Assembly (NCBI GenBank): GCA_965660545.1
Contig: CBFIAF010000004.1
Coordinates: forward strand, 76,655-140,654
DNA: 64,000 bases
Direction of reading: 5' to 3'
From: Alphaproteobacteria bacterium
GTDB lineage: Bacteria > Pseudomonadota > Alphaproteobacteria > Bin95
Shown here: positions 477 to 54,587 of the stretch, one piece after another
Numbering within the stretch: the first letter of the stretch is position 1
Layout of the letters: every line of letters starts with the position of its first letter
Translations under genes and position numbers: made by a program
Notes under the pieces: model-generated
Database searches by the model: none
Told to the model about the DNA's origin: nothing
The model's input: the letters and a program-made list of their open reading frames with translations, nothing else

Positions 477-3400
477 CAGACGAAGATGCAGTAATTGGAC
501 TGTCCGGCATCTATACGATTCCACCGGGCGCGGATTTCCTGGGCACATTGGCGAAAGGCCTCGCGAGCCATATTCCTTCTGCAAGCCTTGGTCAGACCAA
601 GATATTTCTTCCAACGCGCCGCGCCTGTCGGGCGCTAACGGAAGCCTTCCTGGACGGCCAAGATGCTGCGAGATTGCTGCCCGCAGCCTATCCACTGGGT
701 GATGTTGACCTGGATGACCTGGCATTTCAAAGCGACATCCACGCTAGCGCTGCTGCCGAAAGGGCAATCGAACTTCAGCCAGCCCTCGCCTCAACCCGGC
801 GGACTCTAATGTTGGCCCGATTAGCGCAAGCTAAAGAACGCAGCGAACATGGTGCCGACATGCCACTTCCAGCAGCCCTAAGACTTGGCCGGGAGCTTGG
901 CCGATTTCTGGATGACCTAGCGATTGACCGGGTGAACCCAGACGCCGTCAGCCAGATTGATGCAGGTGAATATGCGGCCCATTGGCATCGCGTCGTCACG
1001 TTCTTGGAAATTGTGATCAAGCAATGGCCAGACATGCTGGCTGAGCTTGATCGCTTGGACCCCACCACCCGTCGCGAAGCATTGATTGATGCCCAGGCGG
1101 AAGCTTGGACGCGCCAACCGCCCACCCAGCCTACATTGATCGCAGGCTCGACCGGCGCGCAACTCGGCACGCGTGCACTAATGTCGGCACTTCTGGATGG
1201 CCCTAACGGAATTGTCGTTCTCCCCGGTTTCGAGAACGATGTCGACGATGATGGCTTTCGGCATATCCGAGAAAGCCCAGGCCACCCGCAGCACGCCATG
1301 GCAACAGCGCTTGCAGCACTAGACTTCAAACCGGCTGACGTGCAAACTTGGGCAGTGGATGCACCTGCTTCACCGCGCGCCAATCTTATTGTTGAGGCGC
1401 TTAGGCCAGCGCGGGATGCACAGAAGTGGCGGTCTATTCAGCCAAGACAATTCACCCAAGCGAACAAAAATCTTCAGCGCGTGGATGCTGCGAGCCAGGA
1501 TCAAGAAGCCCGCATTGCCGCGATTTTCCTTCGTGAACAACTGCAAATTCTGGCTTTGGAAAAACCCTACCCCAAGCTGGCGCTTGTAACACCGGATCGG
1601 GGCTTGGCGCGCAGGGTTCGGGCTGAACTGCGGCGTTGGGAGATTGAAGCAGATGACAGCGCCGGTGAGCCGCTTGGTCAAACACCCCTCGGTGCTTATC
1701 TCCGCCTTGCCGCCCGCGCTTGCCGCACCGGAGCGGACGCTGTCGATATTCTCTCACTGCTGAAGCATCCATTGAGCGCAGGCGGCATCAGCCGTGCAGA
1801 ATTTCGCACCAACGCCCGCGCGCTTGAACGCACCGTATGGCGGGATGACCGGCACCAACGCCAAGCCCGCACACTGGCTGATGCCGCCACACTTCTGCAT
1901 GAACTAGAAAAGCCAGAGCTGGCGGCATTTGCTGAACGCGCGCACGACTTGATAGCCCCATTAATCGAGCAGCTCACAGAGGGCGACGCACTCCGCCCAA
2001 TGCTGGAAGCGCACATCCGCATTGCCGAAGCGCTGGCCGCAAGCGATGAGAGCGAGGGCGCTGCAGCCCTCTGGCAGGGGGACGCAGGCGAAGCCGCTGC
2101 CGCCCTCCTCGCTGAAACTTTAGATGCGGCGGACGCTAGCCCATCGCTAAATGGCCGGGATTATCCCGAAAGCTTTGAGGCGCTCATCGAAGGTGCCGCT
2201 GTTCGCAATAACCAAGCAGCTGGCTCGCCGATCCAGATCATGGGCGTATTGGAAGCGCGTCTCGCGGGGTTCGATGCTGTCGTACTTGGCGGGCTAGATG
2301 AAGGTGTATGGCCGCGCCCGCCCGCCGCCGACCCGTGGTTCAGCCGCGCCATGCGCCGGGAGATCGGGCTGACGGACCCGGAAAAGCGCCTTGGCCTTTC
2401 TGCCCATGACTTCGCGCAACTTCTGCATTGCCCAAATGTCCTTCTAACCCGAAGCCTACTGCGCGACGATGCGCCGACCAAGCCATCGCGCTGGCTGGTC
2501 CGCCTGGATGCGGTTGTGGCGGCGGACGGTGCCTGCCCGAAACTAACGGATGGTCAGGAGCGCTATCGCTATCTGGCGGCAGCGCTCGATCCGATACAGG
2601 ACATTGCAGGCTCCGAACCGCCAAACTTCTGCCCGCCTATCAAGGCCCGTCCTCGCCGCCTTTCTGCAACGGAAATCGATACGCTGATCCTTGATCCCTA
2701 CGCGATCTATGCCAAACGCGTACTTGAGCTGTATCCGCTTGGCGACCTAGACCCAGCGCCAAGTCCCGCTGACAGGGGCCGTATTGTCCACGCTGCATTT
2801 GAATCCTTCCTGCAAAAATACCCTGACCACCTACCGGATGACGTTCTGGCCGCAATCCTAGAAGCGGGCGATGAAGCGTTCGCGGAGTTCGCCGATCACG
2901 CAGAAGCGCAAGCCTTTTGGCGGCCAGCGTTCGAGCGGTCCGCACGCTGGGCTGCAGAGCGGGAGATTGCACATCGCGAAGATATCGCACTTGCGAAAGC
3001 CCATGCGGAATTGAGAGGCGAGGTCGTATTCCAAGCTCCCGGCGGGCCGTTCAAGCTGACCGCCAGGGCAGATAGGATCGACGCCAGCGGCGACGGCACG
3101 CTCGCTATCGTCGATTATAAGACTGGCGCGCCGCCCACAAAAAAAGCCATAGCGAGCGCCGATGCGCCGCAATTGCCATTGGAAGCTGCAATCGCCCGTC
3201 ACGGTGCCTTCAAAGATGGTGATGGTGAAACCCTTGCCGCACTTGAAACATCGCTGCTCGCAATATGGCAGTTGGCGGGCCGTGAAGGCGGCAAAGTGAC
3301 GGCTATTGATGGTGAGGTCGCCGAATCCGCCATGGATATCGCGTGGGAAGGCTTCCAACGCCTGATTGCAGGCTTCGATGAGGCAGATACGCCTTATCTC

Positions 3401-3490
3401 AGCGAACCGCGCGCAGCCTTTAATGAGGCACCCCGATTTTCCAAATACCGAACGCTCGCCAGGCTCTCCAATGATGTGGAGGAGTCTTGA
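473..3490 (+). CDS. addB: Double-strand break repair protein AddB (alphaproteobacterial type, C-terminal PD-(D/E)XK nuclease)
   Basis: 1005 aa ORF with a C-terminal nuclease motif (GRADRIDASGDGTLAIVDYKTG). It lies directly upstream of the UvrD-like AddA gene and is translationally coupled to it (ATGA overlap at 3487-3490). Confidence 0.85.
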   Translation: MTDEDAVIGLSGIYTIPPGADFLGTLAKGLASHIPSASLGQTKIFLPTRRACRALTEAFLDGQDAARLLPAAYPLGDVDLDDLAFQSDIHASAAAERAIELQPALASTRRTLMLARLAQAKERSEHGADMPLPAALRLGRELGRFLDDLAIDRVNPDAVSQIDAGEYAAHWHRVVTFLEIVIKQWPDMLAELDRLDPTTRREALIDAQAEAWTRQPPTQPTLIAGSTGAQLGTRALMSALLDGPNGIVVLPGFENDVDDDGFRHIRESPGHPQHAMATALAALDFKPADVQTWAVDAPASPRANLIVEALRPARDAQKWRSIQPRQFTQANKNLQRVDAASQDQEARIAAIFLREQLQILALEKPYPKLALVTPDRGLARRVRAELRRWEIEADDSAGEPLGQTPLGAYLRLAARACRTGADAVDILSLLKHPLSAGGISRAEFRTNARALERTVWRDDRHQRQARTLADAATLLHELEKPELAAFAERAHDLIAPLIEQLTEGDALRPMLEAHIRIAEALAASDESEGAAALWQGDAGEAAAALLAETLDAADASPSLNGRDYPESFEALIEGAAVRNNQAAGSPIQIMGVLEARLAGFDAVVLGGLDEGVWPRPPAADPWFSRAMRREIGLTDPEKRLGLSAHDFAQLLHCPNVLLTRSLLRDDAPTKPSRWLVRLDAVVAADGACPKLTDGQERYRYLAAALDPIQDIAGSEPPNFCPPIKARPRRLSATEIDTLILDPYAIYAKRVLELYPLGDLDPAPSPADRGRIVHAAFESFLQKYPDHLPDDVLAAILEAGDEAFAEFADHAEAQAFWRPAFERSARWAAEREIAHREDIALAKAHAELRGEVVFQAPGGPFKLTARADRIDASGDGTLAIVDYKTGAPPTKKAIASADAPQLPLEAAIARHGAFKDGDGETLAALETSLLAIWQLAGREGGKVTAIDGEVAESAMDIAWEGFQRLIAGFDEADTPYLSEPRAAFNEAPRFSKYRTLARLSNDVEES

Positions 3491-6400
3491 TGGCTGATAA
3501 TCCCACAGAACGCGCCACCCGCAGCCAACGGATTGTCTCAACGCCCAACCTTTCGGCTTGGGTCAGCGCATCCGCCGGGTCCGGGAAAACCAAGGTGCTG
3601 ACGGACCGGGCTTTGCGGTTGATGCTGGCAGGTTCGCAGCCAGACCGCATCCTTTGCCTGACATTCACTAAGGCCGCCGCTGCTGAAATGGCGAACCGCA
3701 TCATCAATCGCTTGAGCCTATGGGCTGCTGCCAGCCAGGACGCTCTCCGCGAAGACTTGAGCGGCATGGGTGCCTTCAACCCGACGCCTGAGATGCTTGC
3801 CCGCGCTGCAAAGCTGTTCGCCACTGTCGTTGATGCGCCAGGCGGGTTGAAAGTGCAGACGGTGCATTCCTTCTGCCAATCCGCACTGGAACGCTTTCCC
3901 GTGGAGGCAGGCGTGCCGCCAGGGTTTGCTGCCCTAGACGAACGCGCCGCTGCAGACCTTCTCCGCGAAGCCCGAGATGGCATGCTTCAGGATATTCTTG
4001 CAGGCGAAGCTTCTGACCCACGTTTGACCCCTGCCTTGGAGCGTTTGGTGCAACGGGGCACTGCAGACGCATTCGACGAGCTACTAAAGGCGTTATTGGC
4101 CGAGCGTGCACGGATCGATCAACTCGGCGGGGCGGATGCTGCCACCCAAGCCGCCTGGCGCTTGCTTGAAGTAGATGCAGAAAGCGCAGCCCCTGAGTTC
4201 GCCATGCGCTCCATCGTGACGCTTGATCAAGGTATGGAAACCAAGCTCCGTCGGTTGATGACGGCGTGGCTGGATGGTGGGAAGACGGATAAAAGCAAAG
4301 GCGACACGTTAGATGCATGGCTAGCAAGCGATACGGATGGCCGCTGCGCGATGACGCCACCGTTGTTCAGTGCATTCTTTACGGGCGGCGGTGAAAGCAC
4401 ACCATTCGCAAGCGCCGCCACAAAGGGTGTCCTCAAAGCCAATACCTGGTTCGAAGAAGTGCACGCGGACTGCCTGGACTGGATTACCAATGCGCGCGAA
4501 CGCCTTTGGGCGGCCGAATGTGCGGCGGATACAGAAGCAGCCATCCGCCTCGCCAGCGCCATTGGCGAGCGTTATGCCCGGGCTAAACGGGTTGCGGCAA
4601 AGCTCGATTTCGACGACTTGATCCTAAAAACTCGCGACCTGCTGGAAGCCGATGGTGGCGCTGGATGGGCGCTTTATAAACTAGACGCAGGCATTGACCA
4701 CATCCTGGTCGATGAAGCCCAAGACACAAACTCAGAGCAGTGGGCGATTGTTCATGCTCTCGCTGAAGAATTCTATCGTGATGGCGCTGATATGGGCCGC
4801 ACGCTGTTTGCAGTTGGCGATCCGAAGCAATCGATCTTCAGCTTCCAACGGGCTGATCCCAAAGAGTTTGCGAAAAGCCGGGCGCGGTTCAAGACCCTGG
4901 TGACAGGCGCTGAGCAAGAGTTCGAAGATCGGTCCTTGGATGTATCATTTCGGTCCGTCCCGGCCGTCCTCTGCGCTGTGGACGCCACGTTTGCAGCACT
5001 GGCAGCCTACCAAGGCCTTGCACCGGAAGCAGAGCCGCCCGCCCATATCTCCGCCCGCCCGGGCCTGCCCGGACGCGTCGAGCTATGGCCAGTGCTCGAG
5101 AAGCCGGAAACGGCGGACATGCCGGACCGCTGGACGCCGTTGAAGGCCTATCCAGACGCCAACGTTAGCGTCGAGGCTGGGTTGGCCGCACTTGTCGCTA
5201 ATAAGATCGAAGAACTACTCAATGATCCAAATGAACGCCTGCCGCCGGGACCATCAGCGCCCGAAGGACGCCGCATTCGTGCCAGTGACATCATGGTTGT
5301 CCTCCAGACCCGGAGCACCTTCGGCGACCTGCTTACCCGCGCCCTGAAAACCAAAGATATCGCTACCGCTGGCGTCGACCGGATGCGGCTAACACGACAA
5401 CTCGCTATCCGTGACCTGATTGCGTTGGGCGCTATCGCTATTCTGCCAGAAGACGATCTGTCCCTCGCCGTACTGCTGAAATCACCGCTGATTGGGCTGT
5501 GCGAGAAGGAGCTGTTCGAATTGGCGCATAGCCGACGCGAGCAACCACTTTGGCGACGCCTGCAAGAGCGCGCGGCGGAACCAGGTTCAGCCTATGCAGA
5601 GGCTTGGGCCTTTGTCAGTGAAGCGCTAAGGCGCGCCGACTTCGAACCGCCATTCGATTTCTATCAATGGGCGCTCGGCGCAATGCGGGGCCGCGCCCGC
5701 ATGATCTCTGCCATGGGCGAAGCCATCCGTGACCCGCTTGATGCCTTTATGTCCCTGGCGTTGGCCTATAGCGATGACAATGCGCCAAGTATGCAAGGCT
5801 TCCTCGGCTGGGTTGAACGGGACCAAGTGGAGATCAAACGCCAGCTTGAAGAAGCTGCGTCGGGCGTGCGCATCATGACCACCCATGCTGCCAAAGGCCT
5901 GCAAGCGCCTGTGGTTTTCCTGCCTCAAACGACACGAGGGGAAGCAAACTACACACTGGGCTTATTCTGGACTGATACGGAGCAAGGCATTGCTCCGATA
6001 TTAGGGCCAACCCGTAAAGCGATTGATCCAACTGCAATCAATGCCCTCCGTGAAGCCCGCGCGCAGCGCCAGGAAGAAGAGCGTCGCCGCCTGCTCTATG
6101 TGGCTATGACCCGGGCAGAAGACAGGCTTTATGTCTGCGGCTGGGAGACCAACCTAAAAGCGGAAAAGATGGCGCTGACCTGGCATGGGCTTGTTGAAAC
6201 TGGCATACGCTCGCTCGAAGACCACGTTGAGGAAGGTGTGTATTTCTCAGAAGCACCTATGCTGGTCTTAGACGATCAAGGCGATGGTACGTCTGTCGAA
6301 GGCGTTCAGACGGATTTCAGCCCTGACATCCGGCACATATTGCCCGGCTGGTGGCAGCAACCCTTCGCAGCCCCGCCCCGCGCACCCGAAATCAAGGCAC

Positions 6401-6981
6401 CATCTAAGCTTGTGCCAGAAGCCGTGGCCGATCTATCGCCGGTACTCTCACCGTTGGAATGGGGCCAGAAATCAGAACGCGCAGCCACGCGCTTTGGGCG
6501 CGGATTGATGATCCACCGCTTGCTGGAACGCCTGCCTGCCCTGCCCCGTGAGGCCCGGTCAAAAGCCGCTACACGCTACCTGGCCCGCGCAGACGGCGTC
6601 ACGCTAGCTGAGCAACAAGATATCCTTAAAGCCGTAATGCGGGTTGTAGAGGACCCAGAATTCGCAAATATCTTCGACGAACACGCACTGGCCGAAACGC
6701 CAATAGGCGGCACCCTCGCTGGCCAACCCGTCGCTGGCATTATTGACAGATTACTCGTGACAGAAGACGAAGTGCTGATTGTTGATTACAAGAGTAACCG
6801 CCCGCCGCCGACAACAGCGGAAGCCACACCGATTCCCTATCTGGCGCAAATGGCAGTGTATCGGGATTTGGCGGCGCAAGCGTTTCCTGGCCGAACAATC
6901 AAGGCGGCACTTCTCTGGACGGAGGCCCCAAGGCTTGTCATTCTACCGGATAGTCTAATCGCGCCACACAGTTTAGCGTAG
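3487..6981 (+). CDS. addA: Double-strand break repair helicase AddA (UvrD/REP helicase with C-terminal nuclease)
   Basis: 1164 aa ORF with Walker A (GSGKTKVLTDR), UvrD-family helicase motifs (VDEAQDTN) and a C-terminal PD-(D/E)XK-like motif (DRLLVTEDEVLIVDYKSN). Confidence 0.9.
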   Translation: MMADNPTERATRSQRIVSTPNLSAWVSASAGSGKTKVLTDRALRLMLAGSQPDRILCLTFTKAAAAEMANRIINRLSLWAAASQDALREDLSGMGAFNPTPEMLARAAKLFATVVDAPGGLKVQTVHSFCQSALERFPVEAGVPPGFAALDERAAADLLREARDGMLQDILAGEASDPRLTPALERLVQRGTADAFDELLKALLAERARIDQLGGADAATQAAWRLLEVDAESAAPEFAMRSIVTLDQGMETKLRRLMTAWLDGGKTDKSKGDTLDAWLASDTDGRCAMTPPLFSAFFTGGGESTPFASAATKGVLKANTWFEEVHADCLDWITNARERLWAAECAADTEAAIRLASAIGERYARAKRVAAKLDFDDLILKTRDLLEADGGAGWALYKLDAGIDHILVDEAQDTNSEQWAIVHALAEEFYRDGADMGRTLFAVGDPKQSIFSFQRADPKEFAKSRARFKTLVTGAEQEFEDRSLDVSFRSVPAVLCAVDATFAALAAYQGLAPEAEPPAHISARPGLPGRVELWPVLEKPETADMPDRWTPLKAYPDANVSVEAGLAALVANKIEELLNDPNERLPPGPSAPEGRRIRASDIMVVLQTRSTFGDLLTRALKTKDIATAGVDRMRLTRQLAIRDLIALGAIAILPEDDLSLAVLLKSPLIGLCEKELFELAHSRREQPLWRRLQERAAEPGSAYAEAWAFVSEALRRADFEPPFDFYQWALGAMRGRARMISAMGEAIRDPLDAFMSLALAYSDDNAPSMQGFLGWVERDQVEIKRQLEEAASGVRIMTTHAAKGLQAPVVFLPQTTRGEANYTLGLFWTDTEQGIAPILGPTRKAIDPTAINALREARAQRQEEERRRLLYVAMTRAEDRLYVCGWETNLKAEKMALTWHGLVETGIRSLEDHVEEGVYFSEAPMLVLDDQGDGTSVEGVQTDFSPDIRHILPGWWQQPFAAPPRAPEIKAPSKLVPEAVADLSPVLSPLEWGQKSERAATRFGRGLMIHRLLERLPALPREARSKAATRYLARADGVTLAEQQDILKAVMRVVEDPEFANIFDEHALAETPIGGTLAGQPVAGIIDRLLVTEDEVLIVDYKSNRPPPTTAEATPIPYLAQMAVYRDLAAQAFPGRTIKAALLWTEAPRLVILPDSLIAPHSLA

Positions 6982-7075
6982 ATCGCACAAATGAAGCAGG
7001 CCTCATCCGTTGACGGATCAGGTGCCAGCCCCTAGCTAGAACTCAACGATCACATCAATTGAAGGAATTACAGCC

Positions 7076-7396
7076 ATGGCCACGCGCCCCGTCACCGACA
7101 TCAGCTTTGATCAAGACGTTCTGAAGAGCGACAAACCCGTTGTTGTCGATTTTTGGGCAGAATGGTGCGGCCCCTGCAAAGCGATTGGCCCGGCTCTGGA
7201 AGAAATTTCCGAAGAACTGGCTGGCAAAGTTGATATCGTTAAGCTGAACATTGATGATAACCCGGGCGTGCCAGGGTCCCACGGTATTCGTGGCATTCCC
7301 ACGCTGATGATGTTCAAGGATGGCCAGCTGGCCGCAACCAAAGTGGGTGCAGCAGCAAAACCAGCCATCAAAGCCTGGGTCGAAGAGAACATTTGA
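7076..7396 (+). CDS. trxA: Thioredoxin
   Basis: 106 aa with the canonical WAEWCGPCK active site. Sits downstream of addA as in many alphaproteobacteria. Confidence 0.95.
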
Positions 7397-7717
7397 AGCT
7401 GATAGGGGCCGATCTATAAGGTCTTTATCAAGCTTCTATTAAGCCTAGTTCCGCTAGCCTGAGAGTTGCAGCGCCGGATGTCCCCCAGCGTGAAAAAACA
7501 GGCAGCGGCGAAATGGAGGATTTGGCCTCCGAGTTCATAACCGAAACGGCGGAGGGCTTGAACGCCCTCGACGTAGAATTGGTAACTCTGGAGCAGAATC
7601 CGAACGATTCTGCCATCCTTGGCGAAATTTCCCGTGCGTTTAGACCGCGGTGGATGGCGCACGCGGTATGTATCACCAGGTCTCGCAGCAATCTGAAATA
7701 CAAGCCGCCCGATCTGC

Positions 7718-8587
7718 CTAAGCGGCCGCGTTCTGCTGGTGGACGGCGTCCCATTGCGCCGCTTCCCATCCGATCATGGCAAGCTTGCGGGGAATGCCCC
7801 ATTCGTAGTTCCGCACATAGCCGTTGCTGAGAATCGCCCGGTGGCACGGGATGAGCCAACTGATCGGATTCCTACCAATTGCTGCACCAACCGCCCGCGC
7901 CGCCTTCGGTTGACCAGCAAGCTTCGCAATAGCACCATAGGTCATTAGATAACCGTCTGGAATCTCCAGCAGCGCCCGCCAGACTTTGATCTGAAACGGC
8001 GTGCCAATCAGGCAAAGCGGCAGTGGGTCCTGGTTGGCCGCATCCTGGAAAATCCTTGCTGCCATGGCTTCGGCTGCAGCAACATCCTCAACAAATTCAG
8101 CCGCCGGCCAACGCCCCTGCATACTGGCGAGGACATCCGCCTGCTCACCCTTAGCGCCCGGCTCTGCAAACGCCAGACCGGCCAAGCCGCGGTCCGTCAT
8201 AAACAGCAGTGTCAGACCGAATGGCGATTCAGCCCAGCCCCAGCGCATCGGAAGCCCCTCACCCCGACGCTTGTAATCATCGGGAGTCATGGCTTCGTGG
8301 ACGACGAATAGATCATGCAAGCGTCCCGGGCCGGATAGGCCTGCATCCAACGCTGCATCGAGCAAGCTTTGGCTTTCTTCCAGCCGCGCTTTTGCATAAT
8401 CTAAAGTCAAGTGTTGCAGGAACTTCTTAGGGCTAAGCCCCACCCAACGTTTGAAAACTCTCTGGAAATGCGCAGGGGACATGCCCGCTTCAGCCGCGAC
8501 CCAGTCCAGGTCAGGCTGTTCTGCCCGCATATCGGCAATGGCGGCCATCGCGGATGCGATTTTCGGGTAGGCATCAACATCAGTCAT
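7718..8587 (-). CDS. AraC-family HTH fused to methylated-DNA-protein-cysteine methyltransferase (Ada-like, lacking the Zn methylphosphotriester domain)
   Basis: N-terminal AraC-type HTH (SPAHFQRVFKRWVGLSPKKFLQ). C-terminal MGMT domain with the PCHR active-site motif (IPCHRAI) and DNA-binding helix. Confidence 0.8.
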   Translation of the reverse strand: MTDVDAYPKIASAMAAIADMRAEQPDLDWVAAEAGMSPAHFQRVFKRWVGLSPKKFLQHLTLDYAKARLEESQSLLDAALDAGLSGPGRLHDLFVVHEAMTPDDYKRRGEGLPMRWGWAESPFGLTLLFMTDRGLAGLAFAEPGAKGEQADVLASMQGRWPAAEFVEDVAAAEAMAARIFQDAANQDPLPLCLIGTPFQIKVWRALLEIPDGYLMTYGAIAKLAGQPKAARAVGAAIGRNPISWLIPCHRAILSNGYVRNYEWGIPRKLAMIGWEAAQWDAVHQQNAAA

Positions 8588-8665: not shown

Positions 8666-9955
8666 CTAATTTTTACCGGCGTGGGCATATACGGCCCGCT
8701 CAAACCGATCCAGCAGCGCCAGCACGCCTGGGTCCGCGAATGGGAACTGTTGAGTAAAGATCGCGCCGGACAGGTCAGACTTTGGATCGATCCAGAAATA
8801 TGAATTGCGCAATCCGGCCCACGCGAGCGATCCAGCGCGCCTGGCACCAGGCATATCATCCTGATTAATCATGAATGTCAGACCCCATTTTTTGGCCATA
8901 CCCGGATAGAATTCCGCATCACAAGTTAAGTGCGGCATGCAGCTGTTGAGTTTCTCGACCAGCAAATCGCCAATATGGTTCTGGCCCATCAACGCTACCG
9001 TTTCAGGCTTCAATATCTGCGCGCCGTCCAAACTGCCGCCGTTCAGCATCATACGCATGAAGCGGGCGTAATCAGGTGCGGTTGAATACATGCCCCCGCC
9101 GCCGTTGAAATGCGCCGGGTTCTGCGGGGGATCAAAATCGACTGCATTAACAGCACCATCTTCGCCACGTTGATGTACCCCGGCCAAGCGCGCCCGTAAC
9201 GCGTCTGTCAGCAGATACCCAGTCGACGCCATGCCAAGCGGCTTACATATATTTTCTTGGACATAGTCACTCAGCGCCTTACCTGTGACCGCTTCAAGCA
9301 CCTTCCCCGCCCAATCTATACCGACGCCATATTGCCAGCGAGTGCCAGGGTCAAATGCTAGGGGTGGGCGGTCCGCCACTGGGCCAAAGAGGTCTTCGCG
9401 TTTCACGCCATGGGCTTTGATCCAAGCCCGCTGATCCGCATTCCACATGTCATAGACATAGCCGGATGTGTGGGTGAGCAGATTGCGCAAAGTGATCACG
9501 CCTTTTGCTGGACGGAGGATAGGCTTCCCCTGGTCATCGAAGCCTTCAAACACATCCGGCATATTCAGGGCGGGTACAAGCGCACCGCAATCATCATCTA
9601 GGCGGATATTGCCTTGCTCCACCAATTGCATGCACGCAGCACCAGTGACCGGTTTGGTCATCGAATGGATCCACAGCACTTGATCCGTGCGCATAGCCTC
9701 ACTTGATCCCAAGCGGCGTTCACCAGCCGCCCCCTCATAGATCACGCCGCTGCTGTCAGCCGCGATAGCGACAACGCCTGGAACGGAGGCCGCAGCATCA
9801 AGCGATCCATTGACTACTTCAGCTATAATATCATCAATCTTCATATACATATCAGTGACTTTCCAGGCCTTATTCATTTTCATATTGATCTGAATTGGTC
9901 TTCCAACCACGATCACGGTCCAACTTATTCTGGCGCAAACGACCCCATTGCGCAT
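8666..9955 (-). CDS. Serine hydrolase (beta-lactamase/esterase family)
   Basis: S-x-x-K catalytic motif (SMTKPVTGAACMQLVEQG) and typical class C beta-lactamase/esterase fold signatures. The start codon is uncertain (internal ATGs at about 9883/9847). Confidence 0.75.
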   Translation of the reverse strand: MRNGVVCARISWTVIVVGRPIQINMKMNKAWKVTDMYMKIDDIIAEVVNGSLDAAASVPGVVAIAADSSGVIYEGAAGERRLGSSEAMRTDQVLWIHSMTKPVTGAACMQLVEQGNIRLDDDCGALVPALNMPDVFEGFDDQGKPILRPAKGVITLRNLLTHTSGYVYDMWNADQRAWIKAHGVKREDLFGPVADRPPLAFDPGTRWQYGVGIDWAGKVLEAVTGKALSDYVQENICKPLGMASTGYLLTDALRARLAGVHQRGEDGAVNAVDFDPPQNPAHFNGGGGMYSTAPDYARFMRMMLNGGSLDGAQILKPETVALMGQNHIGDLLVEKLNSCMPHLTCDAEFYPGMAKKWGLTFMINQDDMPGARRAGSLAWAGLRNSYFWIDPKSDLSGAIFTQQFPFADPGVLALLDRFERAVYAHAGKN

Positions 9956-10065: not shown

Positions 10066-13000
10066 ATGATGGCTTTGAATGCAGGCAATGCCGCCGCTAT
10101 CGACAAGCACACATCCTTAACTGGCCGCGCCGCGCGACTTATCGTTGATGCCCGTTGGCTCTGGTTAGTGCTTACAGTCGCACTGGTGGCCTTATCGATC
10201 GCCCGGATTGACCAAATTTGGCCCCTAGACCCAAATGCCCGAGTCTTCTTCGCCCCGGAAAATCCAGACAGGCAGGCCCTCGACCGATTTGAAGAAACTT
10301 TCGCCAAAGATGACAATCTGATGATTGTGGTCGTACCCAAGGGCGGCGATATTTTTGACCCAAAGGTGCTTGGCGTCATCGGTGAGATCACGGAGAAGGC
10401 TTGGCGTCTGCCGTTCGTGCGCCGGGTCGATTCCATCACAAATTTCCAGCACACATATTCCGAAGCCGACGAGATGATCGTCCGAGATCTGGTTGAGAAC
10501 TCAGCAACCGTGACAGCAGAGCAAGCCGCAGAGGCCAAACGCTTAGCGTTAGAGCGGGTAGAAATCGTTGACCTGTTCGTGCCGAAAGCAGCGGATGTGA
10601 CCCAGGTTTCCGTCCGCTTCACCCTGCCCCAGAAGGATACTTTGACAGAGGTCCCGTCCATCGTGGCTGCGGCCATGGAATTACGGACAGAGCTTGAAGC
10701 GGCTTATCCGTTCATCGACATCCGCTTCAGCGGCGCTGTTATGATCAACAACCAGTTCTCAGTCTCTGGTCAGGCGGACAGTAAGAACCTGCTGGGGCCA
10801 ATGTTCATCGTGATCCTGCTGATTGTTGGCCTGGCGCTTCGTTCCATCTTTGGCACATTTAGCGTGCTGATCGTAATCACGCTTTCTGCCCTCGGCGGAC
10901 TTGGTGCCCTTGGCTGGATGGGCTTACCGCTGAACTCCGTCACGATCCTGGCACCGCTCTACATCCTGACGCTTGCAGTGGCGTCCGCAGTACACATCCT
11001 CTCATCTTGCCGACAAACCATGGTGGAAACAGCAGACCGCAAGCAATGGGCGATCCGCGCATTAGAAGACCATATGGGCGCCATCGTGATCGCCTGCGTA
11101 ACGACATCTATCGGCTTCTTCTGCCTGAACTTCTCGATCTCACCGCCATTCCGCCAACTGGGCAATGTCGTCGGCATCGGCGTATTGGCGGCGATGGTCT
11201 ACACCCTGACCCTCCTGCCAACACTAGTGACGCTGCTGCCGATCGGTCGCCGCACATCGCAAGCTGGCGCCAGCAAGCTCATGGACAAGTTGGCCGAGTT
11301 CGTCATCGCCGAGCGCAAATTACTGCTGCCAGGAACAGCGCTGCTGGTGGCAGGGCTCGCAGTGGGTGTCAGCCAACTACGCCTGGAAGACGATTTCTTG
11401 CGTTATTTCGATGAACGCTATGAGTTCCGCCAAGATGCTGATTTCATTGAGGAACGGCTAACCGGAGTAAGCGGTATCGAATTCCCCCTACCCTCCGGCG
11501 AGGCCCAAGGCGTCAATGATCCGGCGTTCCTGAAAGAAGTGACTGCATTCACGGATTGGCTACGCAATCAGCCGGAAGTGACTTATGTCAGCAGCCTGAC
11601 AGACACCATTAAACGCCTGAACATGAACATGCATGGAGATGACCCGACCTTCTTCAGAATCCCCGATAACCGTGAGGAAGCGAGCCAATATCTGTTCCTG
11701 TACGAATTGAGCATCGGCTACGGCATGGACCTGACGGACCGCATCGATGTGGACCGCCGCACCATGCGTGTCACAGTGCTAATGGCGAACGTGACAACCG
11801 CCGCCATGCGCGGCCTGACCCTGCGCGCCGGCGACTGGTTGAACGGCAATGCCCCCGTCATCCAATCCGGTTGGAAATCAGAAAACCCGTTAGTCAGGCT
11901 CGTCACGCCAACTGGCGTCGTTCACGTGTTTAACCTGATCTCATACCGTGATGTGCGGGCGATGCTGTCTGGCACGCTCATCGCGCTGATCCTGATATCT
12001 GGCATTATCACCATCGCGCTCTGGAATTTGAAAATTGGGCTGGTGAGCCTGATCCCAAATATTATCCCCGCCGTTATGGCGTTTGGCATATGGGGCTATG
12101 GGGTCGGCGCAGTAACGCTTGCAATTGCGGTTGTGTTAGCCGCGACGCTGGGGATTGTGGTGGACGACACAGTCCACTTCCTCTCCAAATATACCGAAGC
12201 CCGAAAGCGTGGGGCGAGCGCGGAGGATGGTGTGCGTTTCGCGTTCAAATCCGTCGGCATGGCGATGTTCGTGACAACGCTTGGCTTGGTTGGCGGGTTC
12301 GCAGTGCTGGCCCAATCGGGCTTCGCTGTGAACGGCGACATGGCGAAATTGACCGCGATTACGATAACTTTAGCGCTCGTCGCTGACTTCCTCCTCCTGC
12401 CTTCCTTGCTGATTTGGCTCGAAACCCGGAGAAAACCGATGATCAAACCTGTTGCTGCTGCAACATTGGCGAGCCTACTGGCCGGCGCTGCGTTCACACC
12501 ACGCCCCGCCAGCGCTGAAACACCTGAAGAAAAAGGCCTAGCCATCGCCCTCGAAGCAGACCAGCGCGACCTCGGCTTCGGCGATTTCACGGCAAATGGA
12601 GAAATGGTACTGCGCGACAAGCAAGGCCGCGAGAGCCGCCGTGTATTCGACAACATGACCCGTGAACGGCCCGAGACCAATGTCGGCGACTTCGGCGTCA
12701 TCGTCTTCCGTAAGCCAAGGGACATTCGAGGGACGACACTGCTGACCCACGCCAAAGTTGAACCGAATGACGACGACCAGTGGCTTTATCTCCCTGCCGT
12801 AAAGCGCGTGAAGCGAATTTCATCCTCCAACCGCACCGGAAAGTTCGTATCGTCAGAATTCTCCTACGAGGATCTCGGCAGCCAGGAAGTGGCAGACTAC
12901 GATTACAAATGGCTCCGCGATGAACCTTGCCCAACGGACCCAGCCATGACCTGTCATGTCTCGGAGAGTGTTCCGAAGAACAAGAAATCTGGATACTCCA

Positions 13001-13260
13001 AGCGCATCACTTGGACGGACACTGCTAAATTTCGCCTGCAGGCCATCCATTTTTTCAACCGGCGCGGCGACTTGGAAAAGCAGCTGACCTTCACGGGCTA
13101 CCAGCAGTATCTCGGTAAATACTGGCGCGCTGGAACGATGCGAATGGAGAACAAGCAGACCGGCAAATCGACCGACCTCTTGTGGACAAACTACAAGTTC
13201 GGCAATGGCTTAAGTGAGGCTGACTTTGACGCCAATCGCCTGAAACGCCTGGCGCGGTAA
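10066..13260 (+). CDS. MMPL/RND-superfamily membrane transporter fused in-frame to a C-terminal LolA-like (outer-membrane lipoprotein-sorting-protein/DUF1329-like) periplasmic domain
   Basis: 1064 aa. The first roughly 785 residues carry two 6-TM bundles typical of MMPL/RND (SSD-like) transporters. Residues about 786-1064 begin with a signal-peptide-like segment (MIKPVAAATLASLLAGAAFTPRPASA) preceded by GGAGAAAA, and resemble LolA-like periplasmic proteins usually encoded as a separate gene next to MMPL transporters. Confidence 0.7.
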   Translation: MMALNAGNAAAIDKHTSLTGRAARLIVDARWLWLVLTVALVALSIARIDQIWPLDPNARVFFAPENPDRQALDRFEETFAKDDNLMIVVVPKGGDIFDPKVLGVIGEITEKAWRLPFVRRVDSITNFQHTYSEADEMIVRDLVENSATVTAEQAAEAKRLALERVEIVDLFVPKAADVTQVSVRFTLPQKDTLTEVPSIVAAAMELRTELEAAYPFIDIRFSGAVMINNQFSVSGQADSKNLLGPMFIVILLIVGLALRSIFGTFSVLIVITLSALGGLGALGWMGLPLNSVTILAPLYILTLAVASAVHILSSCRQTMVETADRKQWAIRALEDHMGAIVIACVTTSIGFFCLNFSISPPFRQLGNVVGIGVLAAMVYTLTLLPTLVTLLPIGRRTSQAGASKLMDKLAEFVIAERKLLLPGTALLVAGLAVGVSQLRLEDDFLRYFDERYEFRQDADFIEERLTGVSGIEFPLPSGEAQGVNDPAFLKEVTAFTDWLRNQPEVTYVSSLTDTIKRLNMNMHGDDPTFFRIPDNREEASQYLFLYELSIGYGMDLTDRIDVDRRTMRVTVLMANVTTAAMRGLTLRAGDWLNGNAPVIQSGWKSENPLVRLVTPTGVVHVFNLISYRDVRAMLSGTLIALILISGIITIALWNLKIGLVSLIPNIIPAVMAFGIWGYGVGAVTLAIAVVLAATLGIVVDDTVHFLSKYTEARKRGASAEDGVRFAFKSVGMAMFVTTLGLVGGFAVLAQSGFAVNGDMAKLTAITITLALVADFLLLPSLLIWLETRRKPMIKPVAAATLASLLAGAAFTPRPASAETPEEKGLAIALEADQRDLGFGDFTANGEMVLRDKQGRESRRVFDNMTRERPETNVGDFGVIVFRKPRDIRGTTLLTHAKVEPNDDDQWLYLPAVKRVKRISSSNRTGKFVSSEFSYEDLGSQEVADYDYKWLRDEPCPTDPAMTCHVSESVPKNKKSGYSKRITWTDTAKFRLQAIHFFNRRGDLEKQLTFTGYQQYLGKYWRAGTMRMENKQTGKSTDLLWTNYKFGNGLSEADFDANRLKRLAR

Positions 13261-14486
13261 TGGACGCGGTCCGCACATCCGCACTGGCGACGCTGGCCCT
13301 CACTTTAGCCGGGCCACCTGCGCTCGCGGCACCGCCGGAGCATCAGGAGATATTTGGCAAGATTGACTTTGACGCGACAGGATTTGCCGGAGCACCACAA
13401 TTTGCCGGCCAGGACCGCCATGCCGCCTCCATCGCTGGCACAGCGACGCTACTGTTGGAATGGAATGATGGCGACATCGCCTTCAAGTTCACCCCATTCG
13501 CCCACTTCGACGAGGCGGATGATGAGCGCACGCACGCCGATATCCGTGAATTGAAGGTTGACTATATCAGCGGCCCATGGTCCGCCACATTTGGCGTCGA
13601 CACGGTGTTTTGGGGAAAAACGGAAGCGGTCCATCTGGTCGATATCATCAATCAAACAGATCAGGTCGAGGATTTGAACGATGAGGACCGGCTGGGCCAA
13701 CCGCTCGTCCGCGTGGCTTACCTGGCGGAAGCTGGTGAATTCTCCGCATTCTTCTTGCCCTATTTCCGCGAGCGCACCTTCCCAGGCGAAGATGGACGCC
13801 TCCGCACCAGCCTGCCGATAGATACCGACCGAGCGATCTATGATACGAGCGCCGAAGAATGGACGACTGCCACCGCCATGCGCTTTGCAGGCGTGTTTGG
13901 GGACGTGGATTTTGGCGTGTCCGGTTTCTATGGCCTAGGACGCGATCCCGCATTCGTGTTTCAGGGCGGTGCGCTGCGCCCGTTCTATGAACTAGTCGGC
14001 CAAATCGGGTTTGATGCGCAATACACATCTGGTGCTACGCTTTGGAAATTTGAAGGCATAGGCAGGATCAACCAGAAAAACCGTGATTTCGTGAACGAGG
14101 ATTTCGCTGCCGCTACTGGCGGATTGGAACACACCCTATTCGCCGTAGACGGCGACAACATGGACCTTGGCCTGATCGCGGAAAATGCACTCGATAGCCG
14201 CTTCGATGACGCCACTACCGTCTTCCAGAATGACTTGATTTTGGGGGTCCGGTTGGCGTTCAACGACCCCGCCAGTTCAAGCCTACTTTTCACCAGCGCG
14301 ATCGACGTCAAGAGCGCTGAAACCAATCTCCGCCTAGAAGCCAAAACCCGTGTTTGTGAAGATATAGCGCTCGGGCTCGAAGGCCAGGCCTTTCTCAATA
14401 CGGACAATCAAGGCCTTGCATCCTCGCTCAAACGGGATTCCTATTTGCGTGTGAAATTAACCTACTTCTTCGGCGGCGGCGCTTGA
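13260..14486 (+). CDS. Secreted protein, probable outer-membrane beta-barrel partner of the MMPL system
   Basis: Signal peptide (MDAVRTSALATLALTLAGPPALAAPP). The C-terminus ends in aromatic-rich LTYFFGGGA. Its start overlaps the upstream stop (TAATG), so it is co-operonic with the MMPL/LolA-like gene. Confidence 0.5.
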   Translation: MDAVRTSALATLALTLAGPPALAAPPEHQEIFGKIDFDATGFAGAPQFAGQDRHAASIAGTATLLLEWNDGDIAFKFTPFAHFDEADDERTHADIRELKVDYISGPWSATFGVDTVFWGKTEAVHLVDIINQTDQVEDLNDEDRLGQPLVRVAYLAEAGEFSAFFLPYFRERTFPGEDGRLRTSLPIDTDRAIYDTSAEEWTTATAMRFAGVFGDVDFGVSGFYGLGRDPAFVFQGGALRPFYELVGQIGFDAQYTSGATLWKFEGIGRINQKNRDFVNEDFAAATGGLEHTLFAVDGDNMDLGLIAENALDSRFDDATTVFQNDLILGVRLAFNDPASSSLLFTSAIDVKSAETNLRLEAKTRVCEDIALGLEGQAFLNTDNQGLASSLKRDSYLRVKLTYFFGGGA

Positions 14487-14490
14487 TCTG

Positions 14491-15114
14491 ATGAATGAAA
14501 TGTCCCCACACGTGCAGGCCGCAGCAACCAGAGCCGAAATCTGTCGCCACGCGCTCGACCTATTTTCCCACTACGGCTTTCAGAAAACCAATATCGGCGA
14601 TATTGCGAAGCGCTGTGAGATGTCTCCGGGCAATCTTTATCGGTTCTTCAAGAACAAGCAGGCTATCGGCATCGCCGTTGTGCACGGGTATTTCGATCTG
14701 ATGGAAGCCGCTATGGATATGGCGCTGGCGCAGGCGGGTGACGCCCCTGAAACACGCATCCGCATATTCATCGAAACCGGCGTCGCTCACTTAGTAGATG
14801 AATTGGAGCGGACGCCAAAAATCGTCGAGCTAGCGGAATTTCTCTGTGAAGATGCAGACGGCCTCGCCATGTTGGAGGAACACATCAGCTGGAAACGTGA
14901 GCGCGTTGCCCGTGAGATCAGACGAGGTATCGAATCCGGTCACCTCAACGGGCTTGATCCGGAACCAACCGCTGCCGCTGTCCTAAACGCGCTGAAGGCA
15001 TTCTGGATGCCAATAACGTTGGTAAACTGGATTGATCGGACAACCATAATGCCCGAACTTCGCGCCATTCTCGACGTCATGTTCGCTGGTCTGGCCGTGC
15101 AGAAAACTGACTAG
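14491..15114 (+). CDS. TetR/AcrR family transcriptional regulator
   Basis: N-terminal TetR HTH (TNIGDIAKRCEMSPGNLYRFFKNKQA). 207 aa, at the end of the transporter operon. Confidence 0.85.
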   Translation: MNEMSPHVQAAATRAEICRHALDLFSHYGFQKTNIGDIAKRCEMSPGNLYRFFKNKQAIGIAVVHGYFDLMEAAMDMALAQAGDAPETRIRIFIETGVAHLVDELERTPKIVELAEFLCEDADGLAMLEEHISWKRERVAREIRRGIESGHLNGLDPEPTAAAVLNALKAFWMPITLVNWIDRTTIMPELRAILDVMFAGLAVQKTD

Positions 15115-16844
15115 GCTGTTTTAGCCGCCGTGATACCAAGTTCTTCCATCATCAGATCGCGCATGACGAACTTCTGCGGCTTGCCTGTTACCGTCATCGG
15201 AATTTCATCAACGAAACGGACGAGTGCTGGAACTTTGTAATGGGCAATTTTGCCCTTACAGAAGCCGATGATTTCAGCTTCCGTTGGCTCTGTTCCAGGC
15301 CTTTTGATAATCCATACAGCGCTGATCTCACCAAATCGCTCATCCGGAAGGCCGAACACTTGCACCTGGCTTACGGCCGGGTGGTTATAAAGAAATTCTT
15401 CAATCTCGCGCGGATAGATGTTCTCACCACCGCGCACGATCATGTCTTTGACGCGGCCTGTGATGTTACAGAAGCCTTCTGCATCAATCGTCGCGAGATC
15501 ACCGGTTTTCATCCAGCCCCCATCATCGATGGCAGCATCCGTCTGCTCCTCGTCGCCCCAATAGCGCTGCATGACGCTATAACCGCGCGTCCAAAGCTCG
15601 CCCTGCTCGCCAATCGGCACAGCAGCACCTTCCCCATCAACGACTTTGACTTCCACATGAGGATGCACGCGGCCAACGGATGTAACGCGCTTTTCCAATG
15701 GATCATCGACATTGCTCTGGAAGGAGACCGGGCTCGTCTCCGTCATGCCATAAGCGATGGTGACGTCGCTCATATTCATCACGCCTTGCACTTGGCGCAT
15801 CACCTCAATAGGACAGGGCGCTCCGGCCATAATGCCTGTGCGCAGAGCCGAGAGGTCATAGGATTTAAGGTCCGGTAATTCTAGTTCAGCAACGAACATT
15901 GTCGGCACGCCATAGAGCGCGGTGCACTTGGCGTCCGATACGGCCTGCATGGTCGCGGCAGGCTCAAAACCTTCGCCCGGAACGACCATGGCCGCCCCCT
16001 TTGTGACACAGCCAAGCGTGCCCATAACCATGCCGAAGCAATGATAAAATGGGACTGGAATGCACAGCCTGTCTGCTTCCGTAAACTCCATCGCAGCCGT
16101 TGTGAAATGGGCGTTATTAACGATATTCCGGTGGGTCAGCGTCGCCCCTTTAGGCTGTCCTGTGGTGCCGGAGGTGAACTGGATGTTGATCGGCTCATTC
16201 CGGTCCAGCGTGGCCGTGATCGCATCCAGGTCCGCCACATCAACGGCATCGCCCATAGCAACAACAGCGTCGAAGCCCAGCATGCCTGCGGGTGCATCAT
16301 TGCCCATACAGATCACGCGTTTCAGCTGCAGTAGGCGAACGGCGTTGAGTTCATTGGACGCGTTGTGGTTGCTCAGTTCAGGCACCAGTTCTAGAATCAT
16401 CTCGGCATAGTCCGAAGACTTGAATGACCGCGCCGCTATCAGCCCCTTACAGCCAACTTTGTTCAGCACATATTCAAGCTCATAAACCCGATAAGCAGGA
16501 TTGATATTGACCAGAATAATGCCAACCCGCGCGGTTGCGAACTGGGCGAGCAGCCATTCAACGCGGTTTGGCGCCCATATACCGACCCTGTCGCCTTTAC
16601 GAAAACCGAGCGCGTGTAAACCGCCTGCCAGCCGGTCGACCTGATGGTCGAACTCAGCATAGGTCCAATGGATGTTTTGGGTGGGTAAGATTGCAGCATC
16701 CCGGTCCCCAAATCGCGCCGCTGTATCTTTCAGGACGACAGGGATCGTGTCCTCGATTAATGGCGATGTGACACCGCCGATTACGTGGGAAACGCCAGCT
16801 TGGGGTTCCCGGCCATCAAGGATCACAGCTGCTGAATCCATCAT
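15111..16844 (-). CDS. AMP-dependent acyl-CoA synthetase/ligase (fatty-acid-CoA ligase family)
   Basis: AMP-binding motif TSGTTGQPKG plus the downstream adenylate-forming signature. 577 aa. Confidence 0.85.
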   Translation of the reverse strand: MMDSAAVILDGREPQAGVSHVIGGVTSPLIEDTIPVVLKDTAARFGDRDAAILPTQNIHWTYAEFDHQVDRLAGGLHALGFRKGDRVGIWAPNRVEWLLAQFATARVGIILVNINPAYRVYELEYVLNKVGCKGLIAARSFKSSDYAEMILELVPELSNHNASNELNAVRLLQLKRVICMGNDAPAGMLGFDAVVAMGDAVDVADLDAITATLDRNEPINIQFTSGTTGQPKGATLTHRNIVNNAHFTTAAMEFTEADRLCIPVPFYHCFGMVMGTLGCVTKGAAMVVPGEGFEPAATMQAVSDAKCTALYGVPTMFVAELELPDLKSYDLSALRTGIMAGAPCPIEVMRQVQGVMNMSDVTIAYGMTETSPVSFQSNVDDPLEKRVTSVGRVHPHVEVKVVDGEGAAVPIGEQGELWTRGYSVMQRYWGDEEQTDAAIDDGGWMKTGDLATIDAEGFCNITGRVKDMIVRGGENIYPREIEEFLYNHPAVSQVQVFGLPDERFGEISAVWIIKRPGTEPTEAEIIGFCKGKIAHYKVPALVRFVDEIPMTVTGKPQKFVMRDLMMEELGITAAKTA

Positions 16845-38981: not shown

Positions 38982-39056
38982 TGGTGGCGGGGGAGGGATT
39001 TGAACCCCCGACCAAGAGATTATGATTCTCCTGCTCTACCGCTGAGCTACCCCGCC
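38982..39056 (-). tRNA. tRNA-Met (anticodon CAT), elongator-type or tRNA-Ile2 precursor
   Basis: Reverse complement GGCGGGGTAGCTCAGCGGTAGAGCAGGAGAATCATAATCTCTTGGTCGGGGGTTCAAATCCCTCCCCCGCCACCA folds as a cloverleaf with a G1-C72 pair, anticodon loop AUCAUAA and encoded CCA. Confidence 0.85.
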
Positions 39057-54512: not shown

Positions 54513-54587
54513 TGGTGACCCCAACGGGGATCGAACCCGTGTTTCCGGCGTGAAAGGCCAGCGTCCTAACCGCTAGACGATAGGGCC
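54513..54587 (-). tRNA. tRNA-Glu (anticodon TTC)
   Basis: Reverse complement GGCCCTATCGTCTAGCGGTTAGGACGCTGGCCTTTCACGCCGGAAACACGGGTTCGATCCCCGTTGGGGTCACCA. Anticodon loop CUUUCAC, T-loop GGTTCGATCC, encoded CCA. Confidence 0.85.

Follow-up and report, generated by a model that had tools for sequence, protein, structure and literature searches.

A stretch of 64,000 nucleotides (nt) from an alphaproteobacterial assembly (contig CBFIAF010000004.1, positions 76,655 to 140,654; the whole of this stretch is called the window hereafter) contains a gene in which an inner-membrane pump of the MMPL/RND type is followed, in the same reading frame, by a LolA-like periplasmic carrier with its own ribosome-binding site, start codon and predicted signal peptide. 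The question raised by this locus is whether the carrier stays attached to the pump or is still produced as a free periplasmic protein. As the ribosome-binding site, the start codon and the cleavable export signal were found to be conserved inside the fused gene, a free carrier is probably still released. The reading put forward here, to which we assign a probability of about 0.62 from comparative sequence evidence, is that of a conserved fusion of overlapping HAE3/MMPL pump and LolA-like carrier genes, in which the linker would be cleaved and internal initiation would also provide free pre-carrier.

Domains and junction of the fused gene

The fused open reading frame (ORF) occupies positions 10066..13260 of the forward strand (+), ends with a TAA stop codon at 13258-13260 and encodes 1064 amino acids (aa). 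According to the ORF listing of the window, the end of the pump (...LLIWLETRRKP) continues into MIKPVAAATLASLLAGAAFTPRPASAETPEE without any in-frame stop between them. The DNA of the junction reads cccGGAGAAAAccgATG and includes a Shine-Dalgarno (SD) motif, GGAG, at 12428..12431 (+), within the codons CGG-AGA (Arg-Arg), and an in-frame ATG at 12439..12441 (+), which encodes Met792 and is the putative ancestral start of the LolA-like gene. The distance of 7 nt from GGAG to ATG suits a ribosome-binding site. An initial annotation of this DNA had described a stop-free ORF of 1064 aa with an MMPL and a LolA-like part, which the ORF listing and the Pfam matches confirmed. Its account of the junction as a ribosome-binding site, an ATG and a signal-peptide-like segment also stood, except that the spacer after GGAGAAAA consists of 3 nt (CCG) and not of 4.

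The pump part, aa 1-791 (10066..12438, +), was assigned to the MMPL/HAE3-type RND transporters from Pfam, NCBIfam, hydropathy, AlphaFold2 (AF2) and Foldseek results. In Pfam, MMPL (PF03176) matched the N-terminal part in two stretches with 77.6 bits, against a cut-off of 20.5. The nearest NCBIfam subfamily was HAE3 (TIGR00921), with 135 bits and below its curated cut-off of 351.9, and the HpnN models scored far under their cut-offs for this part. The pump part is HAE3-like and lies outside any curated NCBIfam subfamily. Hydropathy revealed 12 transmembrane (TM) helices and two large periplasmic loops, which is the RND pattern. In the AF2 model of the full-length protein, obtained with 68 homologues and with a mean predicted local distance difference test (pLDDT) score of 85, the pump and aa 820-1064 were confidently modelled, and the loops formed two mixed alpha/beta domains at aa 44-246 and 438-633. 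A Foldseek search with the N-terminal 790 aa retrieved MmpL3, MmpL4, MmpL5, HpnN and NPC1 with a probability of 1.0 and template-modelling scores of 0.7-0.77 relative to the target. In TM4 and TM10, the helices in which charged proton-relay residues are expected, D700, D701, T702 and H704 (TM10) and H310 (TM4) were invariant among the 68 homologues.

Following the 12 helices, a 13th, weaker and Ala-rich hydrophobic segment was detected by hydropathy at aa 792-810, with a mean Kyte-Doolittle value of 1.58 compared to 2.0-2.5 for the helices of the pump. In the AF2 model, the linker (aa 788-818) had a pLDDT below 50 and formed no helix; low confidence without a helix is usual for signal peptides.

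The mature LolA-like domain of 247 aa is encoded at 12517..13257 (+). Pfam LolA_like (PF17131, a family that carries also the name 'TP_0789-like') matched aa 878-1061 with E-values of about 3.6e-53 to 2.4e-54 and 180-184 bits against a cut-off of 30, and DUF1329 gave a weaker match overlapping it (E 2.4e-9). Protein Data Bank entry 3BK5 was the best sequence match of the C-terminal part (E 3.4e-64) and also matched its fold, a LolA-superfamily open beta-barrel, with a template-modelling score of 0.92 (relative to the target) and a root-mean-square deviation of 2.1 Å in Foldseek. Like the canonical LolA of the LolCDE-LolA-LolB pathway, the domain has this open beta-barrel fold and resides in the periplasm, to which a type I signal peptide directs it. 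However, the canonical protein belongs to a different Pfam family and has an ABC transporter as a partner, instead of an RND pump. As the C-terminal part had no match to the LolA family in Pfam, but only to PF17131 and DUF1329, and its partner is an RND pump, assignment to the canonical Lol pathway was rejected. The name 'outer membrane lipoprotein-sorting protein' given by NCBI is probably misleading; public records designate fusions of about 1060 aa by this name or as 'RND permease', which hides the combination of pump and carrier.

Other members of the LolA-like family (P0124, P0127-P0130, P0146 and P0148) are 390-610 aa long, with low-complexity N-terminal extensions rich in Pro, Ala and Thr in the place of the pump. 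These could be forms that are tethered or exposed at the surface, or else miscalls of the start site.

Conservation and origin of the fusion

A search with the whole protein yielded 972 homologues at E<=1e-10. The best 120 of them were 57-96% identical and 1030-1085 aa long, and nearly all had both domains. Fused homologues were present in isolate genomes (Albimonas, Paralimibaculum and Rhodobacteraceae NNCM2), and the nearest relatives, with 96% and 90% identity, shared the junction of the window.

Genome and metagenome scans with the LolA-like part produced at least 160 loci, and 161 were classified once the window was included. Fusion was called in 21 of the 161 loci listed, a figure that takes in the window itself, a duplicate (L081 is the same as L003) and locus L076, which was ignored because the region was masked with Ns. 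Separate genes with the MMPL gene directly upstream were found at 105 loci, no MMPL gene was directly upstream at 33, and 2 were truncated. The matches listed from the metagenomes were for the most part distant relatives with unfused genes. Among the best 150 cluster representatives of the LolA-like family, eleven reached at least 990 aa and were fused, and most were 250-300 aa long. The fused state is a minority across the LolA-like family and the rule within the clade of the window. The statement of the initial annotation that this is normally a separate downstream gene was thus correct, as the LolA-like gene lay separately and directly 3' of the MMPL gene at those 105 of the 161 loci.

A further candidate, L057, was rejected as a fusion, since its open frame of 815 codons is in the LolA frame but the MMPL matches are in another one. 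This GC-rich locus (3631-6076) appeared as a false fusion by ORF length alone and was placed in one of the unfused classes.

The organization of the unfused operons points to the way in which the genes may become fused. In operons such as those of L010, L013 and L027, homologous proteins are encoded in the same order, the LolA-like protein has a type I signal peptide and its SD motif is located within the 3' end of the MMPL gene. However, pump and carrier have an ORF each, and these usually share 1-47 nt in different frames; the pump stops after TM12. An overlap was present in 54 of 99 unfused pairs, the commonest being the 4-nt ATGA overlap (-4) with 19 cases, and in unfused loci the LolA-like gene usually started in another frame, before the MMPL gene had ended. 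The SD motif is thus already part of the MMPL coding sequence, and a small indel suffices to fuse the frames. Since most of the ancestral gene pairs overlap in different frames, fusion arises by such an indel and not by mutation of a stop codon. An example is provided by two metagenomic contigs that are otherwise essentially identical, where the fused L132 (3854-3880) corresponds to the unfused L146 (2116-2146, with a 23-nt overlap) minus 4 nt (gagc) deleted inside the SD motif. This difference could reflect either a mistake of the assembly or a fusion that took place very recently.

When the fused and unfused states were mapped by Fitch parsimony on a neighbour-joining tree of 292 LolA-domain sequences, a minimum of 16 changes between them was required (15-17 over 30 bootstraps); as the tree is distance-based and unrooted, gains are not separable from losses in this number. 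Fused leaves numbered 26 in the clade of the window, against 4 unfused ones, and some dozen further fused lineages stood isolated elsewhere on the tree. Distant fused forms came from Gemmatimonadota and Kaarinaea, and most of them keep a Met, a hydrophobic stretch and an A-x-A-like end. As judged from this comparison, the ancestral state is one of separate, overlapping and translationally coupled genes, and fusion is recurrent. Contrary to one proposal of the initial annotation, this is not a local loss of a stop codon in this genome: the fusion is old, is conserved in a large alphaproteobacterial clade and has arisen many times elsewhere.

Start signals, predicted cleavage site and probable release of the carrier

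The linker was aligned across 111 full-length fused homologues. The stretch from TM12 to the mature domain was variable, with the commonest residue accounting for 24-50% in most columns, whereas the column of the internal-start Met was 86% conserved. The codon was ATG in about 100 of the 111 homologues. Basic residues were also kept right after TM12. Where Val occupied the Met column its codon was GTG in 5/5 cases, and the only Leu (1/1) was encoded by TTG; the SD energies of these loci were -7.9 to -9.1 kcal/mol, and the probability of such an all-GTG/TTG pattern from codon usage alone was about 0.0015.

In fused loci, the internal ATG had an SD-like motif (AGGAG, GGAGG, GGAGA or AAGGA) 6-9 nt upstream. 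For the ATG at 12439 of the window, the anti-SD duplex energy was -6.6 kcal/mol, a value reached by none of the other 25 in-frame ATGs. The mean for the internal starts of 18 fused loci was -5.8 kcal/mol, compared to -1.7 kcal/mol for 490 other in-frame ATGs of the same ORFs and to -6.55 kcal/mol for the genuine starts of 99 unfused relatives; the difference between internal starts and control ATGs had a Mann-Whitney p of 3e-9, which is not a clean probability as the loci are related. The arginines that contribute to the motif were encoded in an unusual way, since AGR made up 18 of 24 Arg codons (75%) up to 7 codons upstream of the internal start and 149 of 1549 (9.6%) elsewhere (Fisher test, 1e-13). 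The mRNA of the window between -25 and +20 of the internal start (45 nt) had a folding energy of -3.9 kcal/mol, the mean of the gene being -9.3, and ranked at the 4th percentile, and over 20 fused loci the median percentile was 0.06, that is, the region was weakly structured.

Translation initiation regions are usually marked by three things, a start codon, an SD motif and open mRNA. From the alignment, these marks have outlasted the saturation of the linker that surrounds them, so that the nested in-frame gene suggested in the initial annotation gained good comparative support from the ATG/GTG/TTG pattern, the SD motif written in rare codons and the open mRNA. In L161, whose protein is 90% identical to that of the window, the ATG has changed to AGG and a new ATG with a weak SD motif has appeared four codons upstream (E-H-M-K-K-P-R-I-K-P), in what looks like a turnover of start codons.

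A further conserved element of the linker was a predicted signal peptidase site. In the window, RRKPMIK is followed by an Ala/Leu-rich stretch of 17-19 aa and by A-S-A, forming a predicted type I signal peptide (MIKPVAAATLASLLAGAAFTPRPASA, 12439..12516, +) that coincides with the 13th hydrophobic segment. The A-S-A fits the -3/-1 rule, with a predicted signal peptidase I site after Ala817 (ASA|ET). Among the 111 homologues, position -1 was Ala in 110, position -3 was A, V, T, G or S in 108 and position -2 varied freely. Unfused LolA-like relatives have the same arrangement at their N-terminus, with a Met, an h-region and A-x-A but without a lipobox Cys, as in a type I signal peptide.

Two fused subclades, one with L004, L165 and L169 and the other with L166 and L167, had neither a start-competent codon nor an SD motif. 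All five loci keep the hydrophobic stretch, and in four of them, L004, L165, L166 and L167, a standard -3/-1 site is retained (SQA|Q, AFA|Q, AYA|E and ADA|Q). The site of L169 is poorer, with Thr at -1 (GQT|Q). The Met is also missing from P0071, for which the protein sequence alone was available, and its site is ARA|E. These lineages show that the full-length protein alone can be sufficient, and the retention of the site suggests that this protein is processed. The initial annotation had considered that orthologues might uniformly encode the fusion with a non-cleavable linker; near-uniform fusion was indeed found within the clade, but the linker looks cleavable.

How the carrier could be released from such a protein depends on topology. 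A cytoplasmic end after TM12 is the established topology of RND pumps and has also been applied to AmeD (PMC6394551). As the C-terminus of the pump is cytoplasmic after TM12, a periplasmic domain attached to it needs one extra membrane crossing, and the basic turn ETRRKP together with the hydrophobic stretch would supply this crossing and leave A-S-A at the periplasmic face. The signal peptide would thereby solve the topology problem of a periplasmic domain placed after an even number of helices.

Two routes to the free carrier are proposed. In the first one, to be expected from topology, the full-length chain would insert its 12 helices with the C-terminus in the cytoplasm, followed by the short basic turn, and the old signal peptide would cross the membrane from inside to outside as a 13th segment, exposing A-S-A at the periplasmic face. 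Signal peptidase I would then most likely cut after Ala817 and free a soluble LolA-like protein of 247 aa beside the pump, while the signal peptide would stay on as a C-terminal helix of the pump. In the second route, to which the conservation of the start signals points, the SD motif and the ATG at 12439 would most likely still start a pre-carrier of 273 aa, for which export through Sec and cleavage at the same place are expected. Both routes would converge on an identical mature periplasmic protein, and internal initiation would let the carrier outnumber the pump.

Several points weigh against this proposal. The linker is not a helix in the AF2 model, and the basis for its membrane insertion is hydropathy and topology. 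As the fused loci are phylogenetically related, the p-values overstate their independence. The AT-rich loci L011, L082 and L086 have weak SD motifs only. The need for Lys or Arg after TM12 under the positive-inside rule could yield part of the purine-rich signal, although it would account for neither the choice of AGR codons nor the GTG/TTG pattern. Ribosomes reading through from upstream could interfere with internal initiation, and, as two subclades dispense with it, the internal start is not essential everywhere.

The alternative that survives best, although we regard it as unlikely, is that the LolA-like domain is permanently tethered, with an uncleaved 13th TM helix anchoring it to the pump and the internal ATG and SD motif as non-functional relics. 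Substrate-binding domains fused to some ABC importers provide a parallel for such tethering. Without a stop codon the full-length polypeptide must be made, the fusion has been tolerated at least 15 times, two subclades keep it after losing the internal start, and L169 has a poor -1 residue, Thr. However, a plain anchor helix needs no such motif, and yet -1 is Ala in all but one of the homologues and -3 carries a small residue with few exceptions, in a linker that is otherwise free to vary, -2 included. Moreover, the h-region is Ala-rich and only weakly hydrophobic, as is typical of signal peptides, and the start codon, the SD motif and the open mRNA have been kept in a saturated linker well past what is expected of relics. 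The permanently pump-tethered periplasmic domain, a possibility offered by the initial annotation, is unlikely, because the A-x-A site is almost invariant, even where the internal start has been lost.

A second alternative, somewhat less probable again, retains cleavage of the polyprotein by signal peptidase but leaves the internal ATG unused, so that the SD-like motif and the Met would be kept by pausing during the insertion of TM12 and TM13 or by amino-acid constraints. SD-like motifs within genes have been proposed to cause pausing, a proposal that is debated. In agreement with this alternative, lineages without the internal start retain the system, and basic residues after TM12 are expected regardless. 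Nevertheless, pausing needs no start codon 6-9 nt downstream, the Met gives way to GTG or TTG alone and never to other Val or Leu codons, a compensating new ATG is found in L161, and the strength of the SD motif equals that of the real starts of unfused relatives. Finally, a sequencing or assembly error that removed a stop or shifted the frame of two real genes is very improbable and was rejected, in spite of the possible assembly error in the L132/L146 metagenomic pair, where a 4-nt indel toggles the fusion, and of the lack of a verbatim record of the exact window protein elsewhere, because the same in-frame fusion is conserved in more than 100 independent assemblies, isolate genomes included, and the junction is shared by the closest relatives (96% and 90% identity).

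Cleavage of the linker combined with internal initiation remains the preferred reading, and it can be taken one tentative step further. The gene might constitute a dual-output, self-processing envelope 'polyprotein', in which one and the same signal peptide would direct the export of the internal product and double as a 13th, cleavable helix of the pump. If this were true, every pump would be born with one carrier alongside and extra carrier would be made independently. At least 15 independent fusions with both routes maintained would then imply selection for co-insertion or for hand-off at the pump, and a general, undescribed mode of assembly would exist for trans-envelope transport systems for lipids or hydrocarbons.

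The transport module and related systems

The gene downstream, at 13260..14486 (+), overlaps the stop of the fused ORF by 1 nt (TAATG) and encodes a protein of 408 aa with its own signal peptide. No Pfam family was assigned to this protein. It had 1949 homologues, and the named entries in the best 120 of them were hypothetical proteins, bar one UniRef entry, 'Alginate export domain-containing'. The AF2 model was a beta-barrel (pLDDT 86) similar in Foldseek to AlgE, OmpM1 and general porins. This protein belongs to a widespread outer-membrane family without a name. A homologue of the barrel lay directly downstream of the LolA-like gene in 102 of the 130 loci with room for it, namely in 23/28 fused, 55/74 separate and 24/28 other loci. 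As this synteny holds in most loci, the RND pump of the inner membrane, the LolA-like protein of the periplasm and the barrel of the outer membrane form a conserved module, in which the 408-aa protein is likely the outer-membrane partner of the pump and carrier. By analogy with HAE3 systems such as AmeABCD, described below, the carrier is probably a shuttle for a hydrophobic substrate between pump and barrel; it would take the substrate from the periplasmic domain of the pump and hand it over to the barrel encoded downstream.

The barrel gene is followed by a TetR-family regulator at 14491..15114 (+; Pfam TetR_N and TetR_C_27), with which the conserved module ends in the fused clade of Alphaproteobacteria. 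It was found downstream in 17/28 fused loci and in 0 unfused loci, and the module of the window could be under TetR control. Unfused versions of the module were present in genomes of Alcanivorax, Oleiphilus and Porticoccus. The combination of pump, LolA-like carrier and barrel without a Pfam family is thus a widespread uncharacterised module that occurs also in marine hydrocarbon degraders. The neighbourhoods of L166 (gene at 1799-7620) and L167 (1829-7611) are of another kind, without the 408-aa barrel gene and without TetR, and have an MPAB_Lcp_cat oxygenase-like gene upstream, a cytochrome P450 downstream and sulfotransferases nearby. These two loci may have a different substrate.

The only experimental hint to the function of the module comes from Thalassolituus oleivorans MIL-1, in which TOL_3187 is a single protein with two MMPL domains together with a domain of the LolA-like type (PMC6304351). 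TOL_3187 was up 42-fold on the n-C28 alkane, and TOL_3188, encoded immediately downstream, without a conserved domain and predicted to be a porin, was detected on n-C28 only; TOL_3187 was proposed to export the porin (PMC6304351). From the published description, this pair has the same gene order and architecture as 10066-14486 of the window. It differs in being gammaproteobacterial and in that the paper treats TOL_3187 as one protein, is silent on the linker, on an internal start and on cleavage, and mentions no TetR gene (PMC6304351).

A more distant comparison is offered by AmeABCD of Castellaniella defragrans, which combines an HAE3 RND protein with a DUF1302 outer-membrane protein and a DUF1329 periplasmic protein and acts on monoterpenes (PMC6394551). 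The likeness lies in an HAE3-type pump that moves hydrophobic compounds together with a periplasmic protein of the LolA superfamily and a dedicated protein of the outer membrane. However, AmeABCD is encoded by four separate genes, its periplasmic protein is a DUF1329 protein of 451 aa in contrast to PF17131 here, and its barrel is of the DUF1302 type in contrast to the 408-aa protein. As the latter has no Pfam match and no AmeC-like (COG4447) gene was found between 8 and 16 kb of the window, membership in the AmeABCD type was rejected.

The pumps retrieved by fold, MmpL3, MmpL4, MmpL5, HpnN and NPC1, share with the N-terminal 790 aa only 13-16% sequence identity. A small partner protein is also known for NPC1 (NPC2) and for MmpL4 and MmpL5 (MmpS), but these pumps all lack a LolA-like domain at the C-terminus as well as a 13th helix bearing a peptidase site.

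With regard to internal initiation, the production of ArcB-C from arcB by an in-frame internal start, with a conserved GUG and SD motif, was shown experimentally (bioRxiv 10.1101/520783). In both cases a 3'-proximal in-frame start with an SD motif lies exactly where two domains meet, has been conserved between species and frees, or here would free, a domain of a membrane protein. Unlike ArcB-C, which is cytosolic, the short product predicted here would be exported by a signal peptide of its own, and cleavage of the long product would lead to the same mature protein. The fused architecture and internal initiation at a domain boundary are therefore already known, and what is new is the presence of ancestral start signals and a cleavable signal peptide inside a recurrent fusion. 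In the literature on TP0789, on alkane-linked lipoprotein-sorting proteins and on HAE3 proteins with LolA, no description of the linker or of internal-start features was found. The family represents a natural experiment on the fate of start signals and signal peptides after overlapping genes fuse, in which these signals appear to be kept for long, and its fused forms would provide a natural pump-carrier pair for interaction studies.

In the surroundings of the module, a consensus scan over 9.5-15.5 kb, aimed at an internal promoter or terminator at the junction, did not exceed shuffled sequence in the number of sites, and no structured RNA was found near the locus, the Rfam matches of the 64-kb window being two tRNA genes far from it, at 38985-39056 (-) and 54516-54587 (-). 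Upstream, two genes at 7718-8587 (-) and 8666-9955 (-) are divergent from the module. One of them encodes an Ada-like regulator with an AraC-type helix-turn-helix and a methyltransferase-like C-terminus, as recognized by eye from the translation, and the product of the other is an esterase-like protein of the beta-lactamase family (Pfam E 2.6e-54). On the other side, an ORF for an AMP-binding acyl-CoA synthetase-like protein converges on the module at 15111-16844 (-).

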